64,000 bases of DNA from Chloroflexota bacterium (GTDB taxonomy: Bacteria > Chloroflexota > Limnocylindria > QHBO01): positions 449,112-513,111 of the forward strand of contig JBBDXT010000007.1 of the NCBI GenBank assembly GCA_040902225.1. The letters run 5' to 3'. The notes beneath the pieces are model-generated. The model was not told the DNA's origin. It worked only from the letters and a program-made list of their open reading frames with translations, and made no database searches. Position 1 is the stretch's first letter. Each line of letters begins with the position of its first letter. The translations under genes and the position numbers were made by a program. This document shows positions 44,142 to 52,334 of the stretch, piece after piece.

Positions 44142-45197
44142 GTGACCACCGCCGCAGCGCCGCCGCGCACCATGCGTGCGCTCGCCAAGACCCGTCCTGA
44201 GCCCGGCCTCGAGCTCGTGCAGCGGCCCGTCCCGGTGCCCGGTCCCGATGACGTGCTGCTCAAGATGGAGGCGGCCTCGATCTGCGGCACGGACCTGCAT
44301 CTGTTCCGCTGGGATCCGTGGGCGAGCGAGATCGTCAAGCCGCCGACCATCCTGGGTCACGAGCTCGCCGGCCGCGTGGTGGCCACGGGCGCGGGCGTGA
44401 CCCGCGTGGTGGACGGCGACCTGGTCGGTGTGGAGAGCCACATCGTGGACGGCACCTGCGCGCAGTGTCGCCGCGGCGATCGGCACCTGTGCCGCAACCT
44501 GAAGGTGATCGGGGCGCACGTGGACGGCGGCTTCGCCGAGTACGTGGTCATCCCCGAGGCGAACGCCATCGAGTCCAACGGCCTCGACCCCGCGGTGGTG
44601 GCTCTGCAGGAGCCGATGGGCAACGCCGTGCATGCCGCCTTCGTCGAGCCGATCGAGGGGCGAACGGTGCTCGTCACCGGCTGCGGCCCCATCGGCCTCT
44701 GCGCGGTGGGAATTGCCCGAGCTGCCGGGGCTGCCATGGTGATCGCCACCGACACGGAGGAGTATCGGCTCGAGCTGGCCCGCGGCATGGGCGCCGACCT
44801 GGCACTCGACGCGCGCGACCCGGGGACGGTTGATCGGATCCGGGCAGCCACCGATGGCGATGGGGTCGAGGTGGTGCTCGAGATGAGCGGGGCGCAGGCG
44901 GCGCTCGACCAGGCCCTGGCGGCGATCACCCGCGGCGGGCGGATCAGCCTGCTCGGCATCTTCGGGGAGCCGGTCCGCGTCGACCTGTCCGACTTCGTGA
45001 TCCAGAAGGGCCTGCGCATCTACGGCATCTACGGCCGCCGCATCTACGACACGTGGGAGCGAACCCAGGCGCTGCTGCGCTCCGGCGCGCTTGACGTCAC
45101 GCCGATCATCACCCATCGATTCGACCTCGCCGACTGGGAGCGCGGCTTCGACCTGATCGCCTCCCGACACGCCGGAAAGGTAGTGCTCCTGCCATGA
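44142..45197 (+). CDS. tdh: L-threonine 3-dehydrogenase (zinc-dependent)
   Basis: GHELAG, structural-zinc Cys cluster ([12 protein letters not shown]), and GCGPIGL Rossmann motif. Followed by kbl. Confidence 0.85.
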
Positions 45198-46411
45198 CCG
45201 ATGCCGTCACCGCCCGCTCTCGCAACCCCCTCGCCTTCCTCGATGCGGAGATCGAGGACCTCAAGGCCAAGGGCCTGTACCGGCGCCTGCGGGTGGTGCA
45301 GAGCGAGCAGCGCAGCCGCTGCATGATCGACGGGCGCGAGGTGATCACGCTGTCGAGCAACAACTACCTCGGCCTGAACACGCACCCGCGCCTGCGGGAC
45401 GCGGCGATCGAGGCGGTCCGGCGCTTTGGGGCCGGGTCGGGAGCAGTGCGCACCATCGCCGGCACCATGAGCCTGCACGAGGAGCTGGAGCGCCGCCTGG
45501 CCGAGTTCAAGCAGGTGCCCGCGGTCCTCACCTTCCAGTCCGGCTTTACGGCCAACACCGGTGTGATCCCGATCGTGGCTCCGGAGGGCGCGGTGATCGT
45601 CTCCGACGCACTGAACCACGCCAGCATCATCGATGGCATCCGGCTGACCAAGGCGGAGCGCAAGGTCTTTCCGCACGCCGACATGGACGGGCTGCGCGCG
45701 GTGCTGGCCGAGGTGCGAGCGGCGCCCGGCGGAGCTGACCGAACCGTCCTCGTCATCACCGACGGCGTCTTCAGCATGGATGGCGACATCGCCCGACTGC
45801 CCGAGATCGTCGGGGCCGCCGAGGAGGCCGATGCGATCGTCTACGTCGACGACGCGCACGCGTCAGGCGTGCTCGGTCGCAACGGGCGGGGAAGCATCGA
45901 TCACTTCGGCCTGCATGGCCGGGTGCAGATCCAGGTCGGGACCCTCTCCAAGGCGATCGGGGTGCTGGGCGGATACGTTGCTGGCAGTCAAGCGCTGCGC
46001 GACATCCTGATCCACCGTGCGCGCCCGTTCCTCTTCTCGACGTCCCATCCACCAGCCGTGGCGGCGGCGTGCCTGGCGGCGATCGACGTCCTGGAATCGG
46101 AGCCGGAGCTGATCGAGCGGCTTTGGCAGAACACCCGCCTCTTCAAGGCGGGCCTGGCGCGCCTCGGCTTCGACATCGGCGCATCCGAGACACCGATCAC
46201 GCCCGTCATCGCCGGCAGCGGGGCGATGGCCATGAAGCTGTCGGATCGGCTCTTCGAGGAGGGCGTCTTCGCGCAGGGGATCGGCTTCCCGACGGTGCCC
46301 GACGATCGGTCGCGGGTCCGGACCATCGTCACGGCCGAACACACCCACGACGAGCTCGAGACCTGCCTCGCCGCGTTCGAGAAGGTCGGTCACGAGCTGG
46401 CGCTCATCTAG
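45194..46411 (+). CDS. kbl: 2-amino-3-ketobutyrate CoA ligase (glycine C-acetyltransferase)
   Basis: Class II aminotransferase / 8-amino-7-oxononanoate synthase family with a PLP-Lys region ([16 protein letters not shown]). Overlaps the tdh stop. Confidence 0.85.
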
Positions 46412-46427
46412 CCGTCGAAGACAGAAA

Positions 46428-46457
46428 GACGGGGTAGAGGCGAACCTCTACCCCGTC
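46428..46457. terminator. perfect 13-bp stem hairpin (GACGGGGTAGAGG-CGAA-CCTCTACCCCGTC), copy 1
   Basis: It lies between convergent kbl (+) and cassette gene 1 (-), so it is a likely bidirectional terminator. The same element recurs at 47387, 48572 and 49089. Confidence 0.5.
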
Positions 46458-46481
46458 CGGTCGGCTTGCGCCGTTCAAGGG

Positions 46482-47162
46482 CTAGCTGATGCTGCGTCCC
46501 GCCTTGACGTTCGCGTAGGCGAGCGCCCCGAGGGATGCCAGCAGGATCAGGCTGAAGGCGATGGTCGGCAACGGGCTCGAGCCATCGAGTGACTGCGCGC
46601 TGTCGGGCATGCTCCCTCCGGGAGTGCCGGCGCCGCCCTCGACCAACTGGTCGCTTGACTCTTCGCCTGGATCGTCGCCGGACTCGTCGCCGGACTCGTC
46701 GCCCGACTCGGGGACCGACTCAGACTCGGCCTCCAATTCCTCTTCTGCGCCGTCGCAGCCGTTGTCGAAGATCGCCTGTCCGGCGGCATTCCAGTTCAGG
46801 CTGGGATAGCCGGTCAGGGTGACGCCGTCCGAATAGAACGGCGGGACGATGTCGCCCCAGTACACGCCAGCGGCCTTTGCGCCGGGAGACCACACCGGGC
46901 CCGTGTGCTCGAAGAGGTGGTCGCCCTTGCCGTGGTCGTTGCCGTTGTCGCCGTCGACCGAGGCCTCATCGACCGTGACCTTAACGTACGGATTCGTCTC
47001 CGCATGGGTGCGATGGCAGATGGTGACCTTGTGCAGCGGGTCCGGCTTCGTGGCCTGGACCGGAGTCACGAGGTATGACATCGACAGCGCCATTGCGGCT
47101 GTCGCGGCGAGCACAACGCTCAGCCGTGACATCCGTGCCATGGTGAGAGTGCGAGTGTTCAC
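46482..47162 (-). CDS. secreted cassette protein 1: signal peptide, passenger domain, acidic GDES repeats, conserved C-terminal TM anchor
   Basis: GTG start 5 nt after GGAGAT. Signal MNTRTLTMARMSRLSVVLAATAAMALS...VQA, acidic repeat GDESGDESGDD, and C-terminus SSPLPTIAFSLILLASLGALAYANVKAGRSIS. Confidence 0.6.
   Translation of the reverse strand: MNTRTLTMARMSRLSVVLAATAAMALSMSYLVTPVQATKPDPLHKVTICHRTHAETNPYVKVTVDEASVDGDNGNDHGKGDHLFEHTGPVWSPGAKAAGVYWGDIVPPFYSDGVTLTGYPSLNWNAAGQAIFDNGCDGAEEELEAESESVPESGDESGDESGDDPGEESSDQLVEGGAGTPGGSMPDSAQSLDGSSPLPTIAFSLILLASLGALAYANVKAGRSIS
46669..46720. repeat. 12-bp tandem repeat (gactcgtcgccg x about 3.5) encoding the GDES linker
   Basis: Direct reading of 46669..46720. 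Confidence 0.6.
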
Positions 47163-47220
47163 GAGGTATCTCCTAAGACTTCCAGCACCCCTGGCACGCT
47201 ACGGAACACCCGCGCGGCCC

Positions 47221-47277
47221 CCCTGGGGGTCGATATGTCCCGACCCTAACCGGAAGTACTGGGCCTGCCTAGTACCT
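47221..47277 (-). promoter_or_regulatory. conserved cassette 5' leader motif, copy L1
   Basis: ccctgggggtcgatatgtcccgaccctaaccggaagtactgggcctgcctagtacc. Homologous to 48401..48460 and 48921..48976, and partially to 50105..50125. Confidence 0.4.
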
Positions 47278-47386
47278 CCGGATGGGCCTCCGGATGGGTC
47301 CAGTTGAGTGCGGTCCGCAGGTGGGGACTCTGGTCGTTGCGCCCCCGCAACGGATTTCGCGGCGCACGAGCCCGAACACAACAGAA

Positions 47387-47416
47387 GACGGGGTAGAGGC
47401 GAACCTCTACCCCGTC
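47387..47416. terminator. 13-bp stem hairpin, copy 2
   Basis: gacggggtagagg cgaa cctctaccccgtc. Confidence 0.45.
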
Positions 47417-47490
47417 CCTGCCAGGGGGGCTGGCTCAATCGGGGCTGTGCGCGCGGCGCATGCCCGGCTCCGTAGTCTATCCGAATGCTA

Positions 47491-47518
47491 GACAGCCCCC
47501 AGAGGACCGGGGGCTGTC
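47491..47518 (-). terminator. 10-bp stem GC hairpin (GACAGCCCCC-N8-GGGGGCTGTC) 35 nt after cassette gene 2 stop
   Basis: Direct reading. A homologous hairpin lies at 48677..48704 and an identical copy at 49193..49220. Confidence 0.45.
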
Positions 47519-47552
47519 TCGTTCAGGTCGACCGGCTGTCGCCGTTTTCTGC

Positions 47553-48347
47553 CTAGATGCGGCTGCGCACCATCTTGACGTTCGCGTAAGCGAGTGCGCC
47601 GAGGGATGCCAGCAGGATCAGGCTGAAGGCGATGGTCGGCAGCGGGCTGGAGCCGGCTCCGAAGAGCGAGCTATCAGCCGTGCTCTCCTCGGCCGAGAAG
47701 GTGAGGGCAGCGACCGACTGCTCGCCCGACTCAGCCTCGGACTCGGGGACCGACTGCTCCTCGGACTCGGGGACGGACTGCTCCTCGGACTCGGGGACGG
47801 ACTCTTCCTCGGACTCGGGGACCGACTGCTCCTCGGACTCCGACTCCTCAAGTTCGATGAGACAGAACGCGATGTGGCTGATGCTGTCCTCCGAAAGCGC
47901 GAGCAGTCCATCGTCGTGGGCAATGCCGGGACCAGCGAATCCAGCCTGCGCGCCGGTGTAGTCATACACGTTCGAGGCGTTGGTGCCCTTGACGATCACA
48001 TAGGCTGCCAGCCCGCCATCGACGATGAACCAGAAGCTATTGCCGTCGACGGTGATCTCGACGTTGGCCGTTGAACCATCGGGGAGCTCGACGTCGTCAT
48101 CCTGGGTGCCGTCCGGGGTCGAGTCGAACTTCAGCTCGGTGGTACCCTCGGGACACGGAACGTTGCCCCCCGAATTCGACCCCCACTCTTCATTATTAGG
48201 CCCCACCGCGATGGGGAGGACCTCCGGGCCGTCGGCCGGGTCATGCTCGGCCAGCACCGGGCTCATCACCCAGAGCATCGACAGCGCGAGCGCCGACAGT
48301 GCGGCGAGAAGGATGGCGGGCCGCGATGCGGCGGTGCGAGTACTCAC
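47553..48347 (-). CDS. secreted cassette protein 2 (copy A): signal peptide, passenger domain, SEEQSVPE repeats, conserved C-terminal TM anchor
   Basis: The called ORF runs to 48395. The homologous start is GTG at 48347 (AAGGAGA-N9-GTG, reading M-S-T-R-T like gene 1). Signal ...LSMLWVMSPVLA, acidic repeats, and C-terminus SSPLPTIAFSLILLASLGALAYANVKMVRSRI. Confidence 0.6.
   Translation of the reverse strand: MSTRTAASRPAILLAALSALALSMLWVMSPVLAEHDPADGPEVLPIAVGPNNEEWGSNSGGNVPCPEGTTELKFDSTPDGTQDDDVELPDGSTANVEITVDGNSFWFIVDGGLAAYVIVKGTNASNVYDYTGAQAGFAGPGIAHDDGLLALSEDSISHIAFCLIELEESESEEQSVPESEEESVPESEEQSVPESEEQSVPESEAESGEQSVAALTFSAEESTADSSLFGAGSSPLPTIAFSLILLASLGALAYANVKMVRSRI
47737..47850. repeat. 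24-bp tandem repeat x about 4.5 (tcggactcggggacSgactgctcc) encoding the SEEQSVPE linker
   Basis: Direct reading. An identical array lies at 49439..49552. Confidence 0.6.
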
Positions 48348-48400
48348 GATACCGGTCTCCTTTACAGCTCCCCTGGTGCTCGGGCGATAGTCCACCCGAG

Positions 48401-48460
48401 ACCCCCCTGGGGTTAGATCTCTGGCACCCTAGGACGGAAGTACTGTTCCTGCCTAGTACC
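48401..48460 (-). promoter_or_regulatory. conserved cassette 5' leader motif, copy L2
   Basis: cccctggggttagatctctggcaccctaggacggaagtactgttcctgcctagtacc. It contains AGATCT, CCTAGG and AGTACT palindromes. Confidence 0.4.
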
Positions 48461-48571
48461 CCCGGAGGCCATGGTGGTGAGGTCCTGTGGGGTTCGGTGG
48501 CGAGCGGATGCCTTAGGTTGGTGCACCGCTGCACCGGAATCTTGCCCACGCCGGCCGACGACACAACAGAA

Positions 48572-48601
48572 GACGGGGTAGAGGCGAACCGCTACCCCGT
48601 C
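48572..48601. terminator. 13-bp stem hairpin, copy 3 (one mismatch)
   Basis: gacggggtagagg cgaa ccgctaccccgtc. Confidence 0.4.
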
Positions 48602-48749
48602 TCTGCCAGGGGGCTGGATCGATCGGAGCCTGGTGCGTGGCCGCTCAGGCTCCCCTGGAGAGTTGTCCGGACACGAGGCAGCCCCCGCCACACCGGGGGC
48701 TGCCTCCGCTAGCTCAGCTGGTGGTTGTTGACCTGTCTTCTGGCACCCA

Positions 48750-48860
48750 CTACATCGGATGCAAGAAGTAACCGAGAGCGAAGGCGATGATCAGCATCGC
48801 GCCAGCGGTGATGAGGATGCGGCGGGAGAAGATCCCGCCCTTGGCTCTACGAGTAATCAC
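48750..48860 (-). CDS. 36-aa mini-cassette ORF (single-TM peptide)
   Basis: GGGAGG-N8-GTG, reading MITRRAKGGIFSRRILITAGAMLIIAFALGYFLHPM. It has the same M-x-T-R start and the same leader (48921..48976) and hairpin context (48677..48704, 48572..48601) as the large cassette genes. Confidence 0.35.
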   Translation of the reverse strand: MITRRAKGGIFSRRILITAGAMLIIAFALGYFLHPM

Positions 48861-48920
48861 GATAACGGCCTCCCTGGACGTTCCTGCTCCCCCGGTGTTC
48901 AACGCGGTGGTCCACGCAGA

Positions 48921-48976
48921 CCCCTGGGGTTAGATCTCCGGCACCCTAGAACGGAAGTACTGGTCGTGACTAGGAC
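48921..48976 (-). promoter_or_regulatory. conserved cassette 5' leader motif, copy L3
   Basis: cccctggggttagatctccggcaccctagaacggaagtactggtcgtgactaggacc. Confidence 0.4.
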
Positions 48977-49077
48977 CTCCGGGTACCCACGTGGTGGGGT
49001 CTGCTTGGGTCCGGTTGAGACCGGGTGCTTTAGGTTGGTGCGTCGTTGCACCGCAATCTTGGCTGCGCCGGGCCGCG

Positions 49078-50116
49078 ACACAACAGAAGACGGGGTAGAG
49101 GCGAACCTCTACCCCGTCCCTGCCAGGGGGGCTGGCTCAATCGGGGCTGTGCGCGCGGCGCATGCCCGGCTCCGTAGTCTATCCGAATGCTAGACAGCCC
49201 CCAGAGGACCGGGGGCTGTCTCGTTCAGGTCGACCGGCTGTCGCCGTTTTCTGCCTAGATGCGGCTGCGCACCATCTTGACGTTCGCGTAAGCGAGTGCG
49301 CCGAGGGATGCCAGCAGGATCAGGCTGAAGGCGATGGTCGGCAGCGGGCTGGAGCCGGCTCCGAAGAGCGAGCTATCAGCCGTGCTCTCCTCGGCCGAGA
49401 AGGTGAGGGCAGCGACCGACTGCTCGCCCGACTCAGCCTCGGACTCGGGGACCGACTGCTCCTCGGACTCGGGGACGGACTGCTCCTCGGACTCGGGGAC
49501 GGACTCTTCCTCGGACTCGGGGACCGACTGCTCCTCGGACTCCGACTCCTCAAGTTCGATGAGACAGAACGCGATGTGGCTGATGCTGTCCTCCGAAAGC
49601 GCGAGCAGTCCATCGTCGTGGGCAATGCCGGGACCAGCGAATCCAGCCTGCGCGCCGGTGTAGTCATACACGTTCGAGGCGTTGGTGCCCTTGACGATCA
49701 CATAGGCTGCCAGCCCGCCATCGACGATGAACCAGAAGCTATTGCCGTCGACGGTGATCTCGACGTTGGCCGTTGAACCATCGGGGAGCTCGACGTCGTC
49801 ATCCTGGGTGCCGTCCGGGGTCGAGTCGAACTTCAGCTCGGTGGTACCCTCGGGACACGGAACGTTGCCCCCCGAATTCGACCCCCACTCTTCATTATTA
49901 GGCCCCACCGCGATGGGGAGGACCTCCGGGCCGTCGGCCGGGTCATGCTCGGCCAGCACCGGGCTCATCACCCAGAGCATCGACAGCGCGAGCGCCGACA
50001 GTGCGGCGAGAAGGATGGCGGGCCGCGATGCGGCGGTGCGAGTACTCACGATACCGGTCTCCTTTACAGCTCCCCTGGTGCTCGGGCGATAGTCCACCCG
50101 AGACCCCCCTGGGGTT
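49078..50116. repeat. 1039-bp direct repeat, copy B
   Basis: See copy A. Identity ends where 48415 (agatct) and 50117 (catcaagg) diverge. Confidence 0.7.
49255..50049 (-). CDS. secreted cassette protein 2 (copy B, identical to copy A)
   Basis: Its translation is identical to 47553..48347. The 5' leader diverges beyond 50116. Confidence 0.6.
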   Translation of the reverse strand: MSTRTAASRPAILLAALSALALSMLWVMSPVLAEHDPADGPEVLPIAVGPNNEEWGSNSGGNVPCPEGTTELKFDSTPDGTQDDDVELPDGSTANVEITVDGNSFWFIVDGGLAAYVIVKGTNASNVYDYTGAQAGFAGPGIAHDDGLLALSEDSISHIAFCLIELEESESEEQSVPESEEESVPESEEQSVPESEEQSVPESEAESGEQSVAALTFSAEESTADSSLFGAGSSPLPTIAFSLILLASLGALAYANVKMVRSRI

Positions 50117-50245
50117 CATCAAGGAGCCGGAGAATACACGGGAAGTTGTGCGTTGCCTAGTACTTTTGTCGAGTAATTTGCAGAGCGGTGGCGGCTGGTT
50201 GGGTGCGGAGCACAAACGAACGGTGCACGCAGGCACCAATCGTGC

Positions 50246-50890
50246 TCAGCCGGTGCGCCCGCGCGCCTCCAACAGCACCACCTGACTCTCCTCGGGGAGC
50301 GAGGATGGGACGACCACCGCCTTCGGCTGACGGATCGGCTCGCTGACCGCCAGCTCGTGAAGGAAGCGCTCGGGTCCGAGCAGATCCGCTGATGCCCCGT
50401 CCGTGGCGAAGTGCATCGGGATCACGATCTTCGGGCTGATCTGGGCGACGACCTCAGCGGCCTCGGCCGGGCCGATGGTGAAGTTGCCGCCGGCCGGCAC
50501 CAGCAGCACGTCGATCGGTCCGAGCTCTGCGAGCTCCTCCTCGGTGAGCAGATGCCCCAGGTCCCCCAGGTGGCAGACGTGCACGCCGTCCATCTCCACC
50601 GCGAAGATGACGTTCTCGCCGCGCTCGGCTCCGCGCACGCCGTCGTGGAACGAACGAACTGCCGTGATCAGCAGGTTGCGATGCTCGTACTCGCCTGGCC
50701 GAGTCAGCGTCAGCCCGGCGGTGATCGAACGCGTGTAGCTGTGGTCGGCGTGGCCGTGGGAGATCGTCAGCAGGTCCACGTCGTGCTTGCCGGCGACGAA
50801 CCCGGTTGAGGGAGGACAGGGGTCGGTGATGACCGTCGCCTCGCGCCCCTTCAGGCGGAAGCAGGCGCGCCCGTACCAGGTGATCTCCAT
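50246..50890 (-). CDS. MBL-fold metallo-hydrolase
   Basis: HGHADH motif (TISHGHADHS) and downstream His/Asp ligands (HLGDLGH, IPMHF). The likely start is MEITWYGRACF at 50890. Confidence 0.7.
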   Translation of the reverse strand: MEITWYGRACFRLKGREATVITDPCPPSTGFVAGKHDVDLLTISHGHADHSYTRSITAGLTLTRPGEYEHRNLLITAVRSFHDGVRGAERGENVIFAVEMDGVHVCHLGDLGHLLTEEELAELGPIDVLLVPAGGNFTIGPAEAAEVVAQISPKIVIPMHFATDGASADLLGPERFLHELAVSEPIRQPKAVVVPSSLPEESQVVLLEARGRTG

Positions 50891-51086
50891 GGGATGGCCG
50901 ATGCTACTGGAAATGCACGAGCGCCGGTGCCCGCCCAATGACACCGGCGCTCGAAGGAGGGAGGGTGGAGGCGGAAACCCGTTGGTTTCCAACTCGCAGG
51001 GACAACCCTAGGAGCCATCGGTGAATCCCAAAGGGGGGCTTGGCTTAAGAAACCTGAACCTAACGCCGCGTCAGACGGATGCGACA

Positions 51087-52334
51087 ATGCGGCCGATGTC
51101 CTCCCTGGCCAGGCGCCTCGCCGCTCTCAGCGTCCTGCTCCTGAGCCTGGCCATCATCGCGGTGCTGGGGCTGCGCGCGACGGCGATCGGACCCTTCAGC
51201 AGCCCTACGCCCGTAGCGGCGACAGCGACGCCCCAACCTTCCGGGCCGGCCTCTTCGCAGGATCCGCTGACCGTCTTCGGCCACATCGAGGAGCAGGTTC
51301 GCCAGATGCGGGGCCTGCCGGCGGCCGACATCGGGCCCCCGGAGATCATGACCCGGGCCGAGCTGGCGCAGGTCCTGCCCGGCCTGCTCGAGCCGCCGCT
51401 CGACAACGCGACCCTGCGTGCCCTTGGCCTCCTCGACGCCGACCAGGACATCGTGGCGCTGACCGAGGAGCTGTATATCGCCCAGGTGCTCGGCTACTAC
51501 GACTTCGACGCGAAGCAGATGGTGGTGGTGACCGATGCCGGGCTGACGCCCGCGGCGCAGATCACGTATGCCCACGAGTACACCCATGCCCTGCAGGACG
51601 CTGCCTTCGACAGCGGCGCAGCGCAGGAGGCAGTCGCCGGGCAGCGGGATCGGGAGCTCGCCCTGCTTGGGCTCATGGAGGGCGACGCCACCACGGCGAT
51701 GGTGCTATGGGCGATCGGGCACCTCTCGGCCGAGGAGCTGGCGGGGATCACCCAGAGCCCCGTCCCTGACATGAGCGGGATCCCGGCCTGGATGGTCAGC
51801 CTGCTCGAATTCCCGTACCTCTCGGGGGCCGAGTTCGTCGGTCAGCTGTACGCCTCAGGCGGATGGGAGGCAGTGGACGCGGCATATCGCGACCTGCCCG
51901 CATCGACCGAGCAGATCCTGCACCACGATGCCTACGTCGACCACGAGGCTCCGACCGAGCTCGATCCGCTCGACCTGTGGAGCGCCGTCGGAGCGGATTG
52001 GGCGCACGCCTCCGATACGACCCTTGGCGAGGCGTGGATGGCGATCTGGCTGGAGGGGATCGGCGCCAGTCGAACGGCCGCCGACGCGGCGGCGGGATGG
52101 GGCGGCGACCGGTTGACCGTGGCCACCGACGCGGGTGGCAGCTGGGCCCTCGGTTGGCGGATCGCCTGGGATACAGCGAACGATGCCACCGAGTTCGAGA
52201 CCGCCTACGCGGGCGTGCAGTCTGCGCTTCCCTTTGCGACACGGCTCGTCCACGCCTCGGATCGCGAGACGATCGTCCTGCAGGCCTCCTCTGCGGAACT
52301 GCTCGAGACGATCGCAAGCCTGGCGGGCAGCTGA
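51087..52334 (+). CDS. secreted HEXXH-motif protein (putative zinc metallopeptidase)
   Basis: Signal/anchor MRPMSSLARRLAALSVLLLSLAIIAVLG and an HEYTH zincin motif (ITYAHEYTHALQD). Remaining sequence not recognisable. Confidence 0.45.
   Translation: MRPMSSLARRLAALSVLLLSLAIIAVLGLRATAIGPFSSPTPVAATATPQPSGPASSQDPLTVFGHIEEQVRQMRGLPAADIGPPEIMTRAELAQVLPGLLEPPLDNATLRALGLLDADQDIVALTEELYIAQVLGYYDFDAKQMVVVTDAGLTPAAQITYAHEYTHALQDAAFDSGAAQEAVAGQRDRELALLGLMEGDATTAMVLWAIGHLSAEELAGITQSPVPDMSGIPAWMVSLLEFPYLSGAEFVGQLYASGGWEAVDAAYRDLPASTEQILHHDAYVDHEAPTELDPLDLWSAVGADWAHASDTTLGEAWMAIWLEGIGASRTAADAAAGWGGDRLTVATDAGGSWALGWRIAWDTANDATEFETAYAGVQSALPFATRLVHASDRETIVLQASSAELLETIASLAGS

Follow-up and report, generated by a model that had tools for sequence, protein, structure and literature searches.

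The 64,000-nt stretch of DNA analysed here (the window; positions 449,112 to 513,111 of contig JBBDXT010000007.1 from a Chloroflexota bacterium) carried four head-to-tail transcription units between positions 46420 and 50240 of its minus strand, in the order U4, U3, U2, U1. A sequence-only reading of this DNA had proposed four such units with a conserved leader, start and 3′ hairpins and, in the three large ones, a C-terminal anchor and an exchangeable middle (the passenger), and all four were present at the positions it gave. The parts of each unit, including the leader with its 5′ untranslated region (5′UTR), the open reading frame (ORF) and the 3′UTR, are listed below, with bit scores referring to a covariance model of the 3′ hairpin element.

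50050–50163, minus strand: U4 leader and 5′UTR, with GTACTAGGCA (50154–50163), a –10-like TATTCT (50131–50136), the 5′ box CCCCAGGGGGG (50104–50114), box 2 CCAGGGGAG (50070–50078) and the Shine-Dalgarno (SD) sequence AGGAGA
49255–50049, minus strand: U4 gene, 264 aa, GTG start, protein identical to that of U2; predicted signal peptide, beta-sandwich passenger, SEEQSVPE repeats and C-terminal anchor tail, in that order
49073–49221, minus strand: U4 3′UTR, with GC hairpin 1 (49194–49219), C-rich mini-hairpin CCAGCCCCCCTGGCAG (49120–49135), 13-bp UUCG hairpin (49089–49118) and U-rich tail; 95.1 bits
48861–48976, minus strand: U3 leader and 5′UTR, with the core GTCCTAGTCA..AGTACTTCCG (48952–48976), TAGGGT (48943–48948) and a degenerate 5′ box CCCCAGGGG (48921–48929)
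48750–48860, minus strand: U3 remnant ORF, 36 aa, VITRRAKGG..LIIAFALGYFLHPM followed by a stop
48556–48703, minus strand: U3 3′UTR, with GC hairpin 1 (48678–48703), C-rich box (48603–48617) and 13-bp hairpin with a C·U mismatch (48572–48601); 76.2 bits
48348–48459, minus strand: U2 leader and 5′UTR, with the core GTACTAGGCAGGAACAGTACTTCCG (48435–48459), TAGGGT (48426–48431), 5′ box (48402–48412) and box 2 (48368–48376)
47553–48347, minus strand: U2 gene (gene 2), 264 aa, duplicate of U4
47371–47519, minus strand: U2 3′UTR, with GC hairpin 1 (47492–47517), C-rich mini-hairpin (47418–47433), 13-bp UUCG hairpin (47387–47416) and U-rich tail; 94.8 bits
47163–47275, minus strand: U1 leader and 5′UTR, with the core GTACTAGGCAGGCCCAGTACTTCCG (47251–47275), TAGGGT (47243–47248), 5′ box CCCCCAGGGGGG (47218–47229) and box 2 (47186–47194)
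46482–47162, minus strand: U1 gene (gene 1), 226 aa; predicted signal peptide, Cys/His/Asp-rich passenger with the motifs KVTICHRT..NPYV..VDEASVDGDNGNDHGKGDH..EH, GDES repeats and anchor tail, in that order
46412–46481, minus strand: U1 3′UTR, with a CGGC-GCAA-GCCG hairpin, then the UUCG hairpin (46428–46457) and U-rich tail; 44.9 bits

All four units had a GTG start following a ribosome-binding site and reading VNTR (U1), VSTR (U2 and U4) or VITR (U3), as had been proposed, and signal peptides were predicted from the sequence and from predicted N-terminal helices. The acidic linkers proved to be true tandem repeats, with GDES corresponding to 5.4 copies of a 12-nt repeat (46646–46710) and SEEQSVPE to 4.4 copies of a 24-nt repeat (47735–47840 and 49437–49542). 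The near-identity claimed for the C-terminal coding DNA held as well: U1 and U2 were identical at 73 of the 78 bases of the anchor DNA SSPLPTIAFSLILLASLGALAYANVK, with all five differences being synonymous, and identity over a wider 122 nt was 84%. The fraction of identical codons was modestly higher in the tail-coding DNA (0.86) than in the passenger (0.74). The passengers of genes 1 and 2, which had been called unrelated, showed no detectable sequence similarity and differed in their AlphaFold2 folds. The U4 protein matched the NCBI protein WEB29_11215 of a metagenome-assembled genome (MAG) at 100%, and a hypothetical protein encoded by a Chloroflexota MAG was 100% identical to that of gene 2, whose named relatives were Candidatus Limnocylindria.

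The head and the tail of these proteins were each common to hundreds of soil-metagenome proteins, the former reading M/V-(S/N/T)-T-R followed by a hydrophobic helix and the latter ..SGEQSVEAGTGTPEES.PDG.LFG.GSSPLPTIAFSLILLASLGGLAYANVK.VR.R., and at least six unrelated middles were found between the shared head and tail among the metagenomic relatives. The recurrence of the C-terminal anchor beyond the window was examined with a profile of the last 59 residues, which was searched against 1.84 billion cluster representatives. It matched 203 of these (132 at E ≤ 1e-10), with lengths ranging from 38 to 1152 aa, and among the matches listed the tail reached the C-terminus within a few residues in all but a few. 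The sequence-only reading of these genes as encoding secreted, anchored surface proteins with constant ends and unrelated middles was supported, and head and tail recur widely. In the tail consensus, GTGTP..S.PD(G/T)A and about 11 further residues preceded a membrane helix with a basic end, and an SPLPT signature directly abutted the helix. The resulting tripartite C-terminus of short motif, hydrophobic stretch of about 15–20 residues and basic end is exemplified by ..PDSAQSLDGSSPLPT-IAFSLILLASLGALAYA-NVKAGRSIS. Distant relatives, as well as very large adhesin-like proteins, ended in (L/V/I)P(D/N)TA, about 10 residues, a hydrophobic helix and RRRR, suggesting that the tail is arranged like a sorting signal of the sortase type. 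The sorting motif itself would then have degenerated within the small family, to a PDGA consensus overall and to MPDSA and TADSS in the window.

Scanning a genome collection with the same profile yielded 18 loci (handles such as L019 denote loci and contigs other than the window), all of them in Chloroflexota or Limnocylindria MAGs or on short contigs that were probably mis-binned. Arrays of two to four tail genes recurred among these loci. On two long contigs from other species (L019 and L020), four slots lay between an MBL-fold gene and kbl/tdh, as in the window, with ArgRS and a DUF8575 protein further out. The slot adjoining kbl was always occupied by a gene of the gene-1 type, the other slots varied in passenger type between species, and more distant relatives had a single tail gene adjoining kbl. 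In about 10 kb on either side, the syntenic loci contained no called recombinase or integrase, and plasmid and phage collections gave no match to the region. The array is therefore a stable chromosomal locus that evolves by duplication, conversion, replacement and loss, rather than a mobile element or a set of programmed cassettes.

The gene 1 passenger had 551 homologues, and its AlphaFold2 model, which was of moderate confidence, was without structural match; a sequence search of the PDB with the profiles of both families gave no match either. The invariant Cys, His and Asp residues of this passenger (in ICHRT, DGDxGNDxGKGDH and EH) suggest metal binding, which we regard as putative. Residues invariant in the gene-1 family included C49, H50, N57, Y59, D65, D70, G71, D76, D81, H86, W102, D104, P107-P108 and C136, and the Asp/Gly-rich loop DGDxGNDxGKGDH within residues 44–136 is reminiscent of calcium- or metal-binding loops. 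Separately, JGI had given the annotation ‘involved in copper resistance’ to one relative, which has a different passenger type (P0051). One passenger type that accompanied the tails of the small family also occurred with tails of the LPDTA/LPNTA type, indicating that evolution has brought passengers and tails into new combinations.

Within the array, positions 47376–48414 and 49078–50116 were identical over 1039 bp (100% identity), making U4 and U2 copies of each other. This identity ended upstream at the 5′UTR box AACCCCAGGGGGG and downstream just past the terminator tail. U3 aligned with a 192-aa family member of another species (L007, 8371–9300) over its promoter, 5′UTR, signal peptide and 3′UTR, with about 470 nt in between, comprising passenger, spacer and anchor, missing. 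It is the internally deleted remnant of a ‘TKVTICHATSG’-type member that has kept the signal-peptide part, and its 3′ copy is decaying, with a C-rich box one C short and the C·U mismatch in the hairpin. The sequence-only reading is corrected accordingly in that U4 and U2 are one and the same gene and U3 is a deletion remnant rather than a distinct kind of small gene. Since the identical 1039-bp copy occupies two slots and ends in conserved flanks, recombination between units has happened. Adjacent duplicates were common in other species as well, where they were 84–95% identical and therefore old. The array thus changes by ordinary tandem duplication, by gene conversion via the conserved flanks, as between U4 and U2, and by deletion, as in U3. 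Two further ORFs of 204 aa on the plus strand (47460–48074 and 49162–49776), antisense to genes 2 and 4, were identical to each other, both being covered by the duplication, and are most likely by-products of the high G+C content without coding function rather than genes.

The leader motif reported as common to the units was exact in U2 (48405–48445) and U3 (48922–48962), but U1 carried a 74% copy and U4 a partial one, overlapping the motif only in GTACTAGGCA, in CTTCCCG and in everything from AACCCCAGGGGGG on. From 50116 downstream the U4 leader was identical to that of U2; its promoter region differed from that of the other units, retaining GTACTAGGCA and the TATTCT box. Both leader and hairpin were found in further genomes and metagenomes and are hence not confined to this array. 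An alignment of 55 unique leader copies from genomes and metagenomes revealed an invariant core, CC(G/A)GAGGTACTAGGCA..CCAGTACTTCCG, which includes the inverted repeat GGAgGTACT-N10-AGTACtTCC and a TAGGCA hexamer. A TAnnnT box followed 17–18 nt past TAGGCA and varied solely at its inner positions (TAGGGT, TACGGT, TATGGT, TATTCT). Further downstream came, in order, ATC(G/T)A, CCCCAGGGGGG, a variable hairpin, CCAGGGG, the SD sequence and ATCGTGA(A/C)(C/T)ACTCG. Because a fixed T-A...T with free inner bases resembles a –10 element, we infer that the leader is a promoter (with a TAGGCA-like –35 and a TAnnnT –10) with an overlapping operator, followed by a 5′UTR of about 80 nt. The inverted repeat is probably the binding site of a shared regulator.

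The leader was found upstream of none of 17 giant tail-bearing proteins (0/17) and is specific to the small protein family. Folding of the 5′UTR was no better than that of shuffled sequences, and Rfam gave no match to the leader at gathering or permissive thresholds. Giant adhesin-like genes that share the 3′ element had an upstream motif of their own, consisting of GGTACCAAAGTACCGG and, about 9 nt further on, (G/A)ATACT, and a G-rich ribosome-binding region, GCCAAGGGGGCAUCC (L006:280–545 and L017:10150–10390, also in L086, L099, L074 and L118). GTAC repeats thus occurred in either type of promoter, which may indicate a single regulator.

Downstream of each unit, the 13-bp hairpin GACGGGGTAGAGG-TTCG-CCTCTACCCCGTC (gene strand) was present as previously described, at four sites located 24–150 nt past the stop codons, with one mismatch in the U3 copy; the rest of the 64 kb held no copy (0 expected). 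The 10-bp GC hairpin that had been reported alongside it was present in U2, U3 and U4, where it separates the stop codon from the main hairpin, but U1 has the CGGC-GCAA-GCCG hairpin in its place. A terminator scan recognised three of the four 13-bp copies as resembling intrinsic terminators, with 14–15 pairs and a T-rich tail (CTGTTGTGT or TTCTGTCTTC), and the other terminator-like sites in the window were weak (5–8 pairs) and unrelated. The fold of the U2 3′UTR had a z-score of –5.8. Rfam gave no match to the whole window at the gathering threshold and, at permissive settings over 46300–50300, only chance matches of miRNA models inside coding DNA. Searches of the literature on Limnocylindria, on Chloroflexi sortases and on conserved stem-loops with sorting signals turned up no description of the element or the array.

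A scan of metagenomes, in which purine or pyrimidine alternatives (R/Y) were allowed at four stem positions, revealed at least 132 copies of the hairpin on at least 120 contigs. All 116 listed copies with enough upstream DNA lay 20–240 nt past an ORF ending in the motif, a membrane helix and a basic tail (the 16 other listed copies were within about 200 nt of a contig end). The small family accounted for 55 of these 116 ORFs, the others being different and including proteins of up to about 1600 aa. Sampling in the reverse direction, from tail genes found by protein search, revealed the element in 26 of 31. The conserved block spanned about 65 nt (ATTGATCCAGCCCCCCTGGCAGG, the hairpin and TTCTGTTGTG) and was 90–100% conserved, and sequence 35 nt beyond it was essentially random. 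In 323 kb of genome loci plus the window, strong matches to the covariance model were found solely on the sense strand, after tail genes. Among 162 unique copies, 123 had an identical 30-mer, and in the 17 stem variants 15 departures from the consensus were G·U wobbles and 8 were compensatory double changes, leaving one mismatch, that of the U3 pseudogene unit. In a distant genome (L018) three pairs were compensated and the loop was different. Since the stem variants form G·U pairs on the sense strand and A·C mismatches on the other, the constraint acts on the transcribed RNA, which in turn rules out a DNA recombination site or dispersed palindrome as the main explanation of the hairpin.

These data are best explained by a tandem array in the chromosome, with four units that are transcribed independently and encode a family of small cell-surface proteins; the family would be specific to Limnocylindria, and the array sits at a position conserved between species. 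We assign this reading a probability of about 0.7. Each unit would start with a promoter within the inverted repeat, where a putative shared regulator would bind, followed by the 5′UTR of about 80 nt with two CCAGGGG boxes. From the GTG start, a predicted Sec-type signal peptide would lead into the variable passenger, the acidic repeat spacer and the conserved C-terminal tail with its sortase-type layout and degenerate motif. Transcription would end in the structured 3′UTR, at the 13-bp UUCG hairpin and its U-rich tail, and the last 65 nt or so of this 3′UTR would form a sequence-specific RNA element common to other anchored surface-protein genes of the lineage. Head and tail would be constant because they carry the signals for export, anchoring and expression, and the diversity of the middles would result from the joining of different passenger domains to these ends. 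The array would thereby offer a textbook case of export and anchoring modules that stay fixed while passengers are duplicated, replaced and lost. In Limnocylindria, an abundant uncultured class of soil Chloroflexota, the tail would define a lineage-specific C-terminal anchor or sorting signal outside current annotation models. A model of this tail would allow the envelope proteome of the class to be listed from genomes alone, and would also point to a sorting enzyme yet to be found.

Several observations weigh against this reading. Promoter, start site, termination and anchoring were all deduced from the DNA of an uncultured lineage. The window proteins lack a canonical LPXT(G/A), having MPDSA (U1) and TADSS (U2 and U4) instead, and the family consensus xPD(G/T)A does not match the accepted variants LPXTG, LPXTA, LAXTG or NPQTN. 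Pfam and NCBIfam gave no family for the three proteins or their isolated tails, and isolated tails, including those of the LPNTA type, matched no LPXTG or CTERM model even at E ≤ 10. A motif scan for sortases (TLxTC with His/Arg context) across 784 kb of sequence yielded no candidate ORF. The covariation term of the 5′UTR was negligible in RNAalifold and gave no support for structure, and the energy of a 5′–3′ duplex was only marginally better than that with shuffled 5′UTRs. The 3′ element was missing from 5 of the 31 tail genes found protein-first, which had only the first GC hairpin, and units of the gene-1 type kept the hairpin with a small GNRA-type hairpin replacing the upstream C-rich box; the element is therefore not obligatory for the family. 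Finally, the identical U2/U4 duplicate could in principle be an assembly error.

The last point can be extended to the view that the repeated segments are an assembly artefact, with a repeat mis-joined or falsely duplicated in the metagenome-assembled contig. Repeats resolved in a MAG are not usually 100% identical over 1039 bp, and neighbouring duplicates in other species reach only 84–95%. However, the family, leader, tail and hairpins occur in more than 100 independent contigs as well as at the 18 genome loci, four-slot arrays with adjacent duplicates are also found in independent assemblies, and the U2 and U4 copies differ in their upstream promoter and downstream spacer and have the distinct U3 between them. 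Any doubt is limited to the copy number of a single unit, and an artefact of this kind is unlikely. Cassette exchange or recombinational variation had been the earlier interpretation of the constant ends, and a programmed, antigenic-variation-like system with heads and tails serving as recombination sites for passenger swapping would fit the identical copy in two slots with end points inside conserved flanks, the ‘empty’ U3 that retains head and tail, the orthologous slots that hold different passengers in different species, and the inverted repeat that surrounds each gene at the DNA level, with CCAGGGGGG as its 5′ and CCCCCCTGG as its 3′ box. Recombination via conserved flanks and species-specific passengers in the slots are the parts of that interpretation that stand; the dedicated system does not. 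No unit is without a promoter-like leader, ribosome-binding site and start of its own, which leaves no silent cassettes and no donor archive. Moreover, no recombinase was called in about 10 kb at the syntenic loci, the array site and the gene-1-type slot beside kbl are stable between species, duplicates elsewhere are old, the hairpin varies like a strand-specific RNA, and homologous recombination would likewise yield end points in conserved flanks. Constant heads and tails are more simply explained as export, anchoring and expression signals of a paralogous family, and a programmed exchange system is accordingly very unlikely. Even less credit can be given to the idea that the hairpins are dispersed extragenic palindromes, such as repetitive extragenic palindromic (REP) sequences, bacterial interspersed mosaic elements (BIMEs) or miniature inverted-repeat transposable elements (MITEs), or DNA uptake or recombination sites. 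A perfect 13-bp palindrome with GTAG does occur four times in 3.8 kb, and its sequence is identical across species, but all four copies in the 64 kb are inside the array, the strong matches in 323 kb and all 116 testable listed metagenomic copies follow tail genes, and single changes always give sense-strand G·U pairs, which are irrelevant for duplex DNA. Furthermore, the hairpin was absent from plasmid, phage and viral collections, including IMG/VR. Such dispersed palindromes are extremely improbable here.

How much the 3′ element does beyond ending transcription is a closer question. It might be a strong intrinsic terminator only, inherited together with the anchor-coding module, in which case selection for the best stem, together with recurrent homogenisation among its many copies, would account for the sequence conservation. 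This possibility, which is doubtful but about as likely as the class-specific regulatory role discussed below, is consistent with the stem, UUCG loop and U-rich tail, with the position at the 3′ end of every unit, with a stem that tolerates G·U and compensatory changes as a purely structural constraint would, with the evident gene conversion within arrays, and with the five tail genes that manage without the element. On the other hand, about 24 nt upstream of the stem (ATTGATCCAGCCCCCCTGGCAGG) are invariant beside very different genes, and the 30-mer is identical in 123 of 162 copies despite diverged anchor peptides (PTIAFSLILL, IPVELM and PAGLAGL types). The weak and unrelated character of the window's other terminator-like sites also argues against a terminator alone, and a generic terminator is not expected to be confined to one functional gene class. 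Because of this invariance upstream of the stem, the 30-mer identity and the association with one gene class, we infer that the element does more than terminate, and might stabilise or co-regulate mRNAs via a factor or via its C-rich loop. To our knowledge, sequence-specific 3′ signals common to a whole class of bacterial mRNAs are rare. A possible, though doubtful, reading is that this stretch of about 65 nt, made up of AUUGAUCCAGCCCCCCUGGCAGG, the 13-bp UUCG hairpin and a U-tract, acts as an RNA signal that defines a regulon and labels mRNAs of C-terminally sorted surface proteins in Limnocylindria. No more firmly, it could be proposed that the signal is read by a dedicated RNA-binding factor, or by pairing of the C-rich loop with G-rich 5′UTR and SD boxes.

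With regard to such pairing, the box CCAGCCCCCCUGG can form a hairpin of 4–5 bp with a C5 loop and is complementary to the 5′UTR box CCAGGGGGG and to the G-rich SD regions of the giant genes. The CCAGGGGGG 9-mer and its complement occurred five times in the window, always in the array (1.4 expected). The natural variation in G-run and C-run lengths was too small for a covariation test, and pairing between the 5′ and 3′UTRs is speculation. The histone mRNAs of animals end in a 3′ stem-loop that depends on the binding protein SLBP and on cleavage rather than termination. The element resembles it in being a short conserved 3′ stem-loop that marks one functional mRNA class across paralogues, but the histone stem-loop is eukaryotic and the hairpin described here is also intrinsic-terminator-like. 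In Staphylococcus aureus, a UCCCC motif in the 3′UTR of the icaR mRNA pairs with the SD region of the same mRNA (PMC3868564). Similarly, the CCCCC loop in CCAGCCCCCCUGG is complementary to CCAGGGGGG, to CCAGGGG and to the SD sequences AGGGGAG or AAGGGGG, and both ends are conserved. Unlike in icaR, the pairing is predicted from complementarity and has a marginal energy, gene-1-type units are without the C-rich box, and the element is common to a gene class instead of belonging to a single gene. If the regulatory reading were true, the envelope proteins would be coordinated as one set, in stability or in translation, by a bacterial equivalent of the histone mRNA stem-loop or by an icaR-type interaction between 5′ and 3′UTRs that operates class-wide. 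In every checkable listed copy the conserved 3′ RNA element followed only this functional gene class, and a regulatory role would be testable with metatranscriptomes and reporter constructs.

At the protein level, the array resembles the LPXTG/MSCRAMM surface proteins in its predicted signal peptide, variable ‘A’ domain, acidic repeat spacer (comparable to the Ser-Asp repeats of Clf/Sdr proteins), motif, helix and basic tail. As in those, members of the family are often paralogues with unrelated passengers, and the distant relatives of the family carry an LPXTA-like (L/V/I)P(D/N)TA. The array differs from them in the MPDSA and TADSS motifs, in the missing matches to anchor models and the empty sortase scan of 784 kb, and in a conserved block of about 59 aa, which is much longer than the usual signal. 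Lineage-specific CTERM domains (PEP-CTERM, PGF-CTERM, GlyGly-CTERM) are handled by exosortase, archaeosortase and rhombosortase. In a similar way, a candidate signature (here SPLPT) stands at a membrane helix and basic cluster at the very end of the protein, follows a low-complexity linker and is found within one lineage on many unrelated proteins (203 representatives). In contrast to those, the tail matched no NCBIfam model and has an additional upstream motif, GTGTP..S.PDxA, that is atypical of CTERM domains. The array is thus a member of a familiar kind, that of paralogous anchored surface proteins, with the attached class-specific 3′ RNA element being the unexpected part.

Integron cassettes share with the array short ORFs in the same orientation, each followed by an inverted repeat, and a content that varies between relatives. 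An integron cassette array was nevertheless rejected, given the chromosomally fixed position, the promoter-like leader of each unit and the absence of a called integrase within about 10 kb at the syntenic loci, as was an attC site, given that the hairpin is without core sites (GTTRRRY) and extrahelical bases and is constrained as sense-strand RNA. Antigenic or phase-variation cassettes were discarded on account of the promoter-like leader, SD sequence and start in all units and the lack of a called recombinase within about 10 kb at the syntenic loci, and a mobile element on account of the negative plasmid, phage and IMG/VR searches.

A number of minor observations concern the surroundings of the tail genes. 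Distant tail genes (L010:662–720, L011:3384–3450, L012:10174–10240, L013:10171–10240 and L006:239–300) were without the 13-bp hairpin element. The hairpin that they retained was of the first type, (A/G)CAGCCCCCGG-loop-CCGGGGGCTG(T/C), whose outer pairs covary and which is apparently ancestral among the 3′ structures of the family. Three loci titled Methylomirabilota, Gemmatimonadales and Zixiibacteriota (L003, L004 and L012, respectively) were contigs of 3.3–68 kb with typical Limnocylindria arrays, hairpins and leaders, and probably represent binning contamination in public MAGs of unrelated phyla. On the MBL-fold side of the array in the window, positions 51021–52334 of the plus strand encode a membrane-anchored protein with an HExxH motif (YAHEYTHALQD), for which Pfam reports DUF8575 in relatives and which may be an envelope metalloprotease. 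This DUF8575-type neighbour was conserved beyond the MBL-fold gene in three species, with the whole neighbourhood being syntenic. Finally, the terminator hairpin of U1 lay 17 nt from the stop (46411) of the convergent kbl gene, which belongs to a tdh-kbl operon (44142–46411, plus strand). As a perfect palindrome, this hairpin could also stop kbl transcription, although the plus strand is without a T-rich tail.

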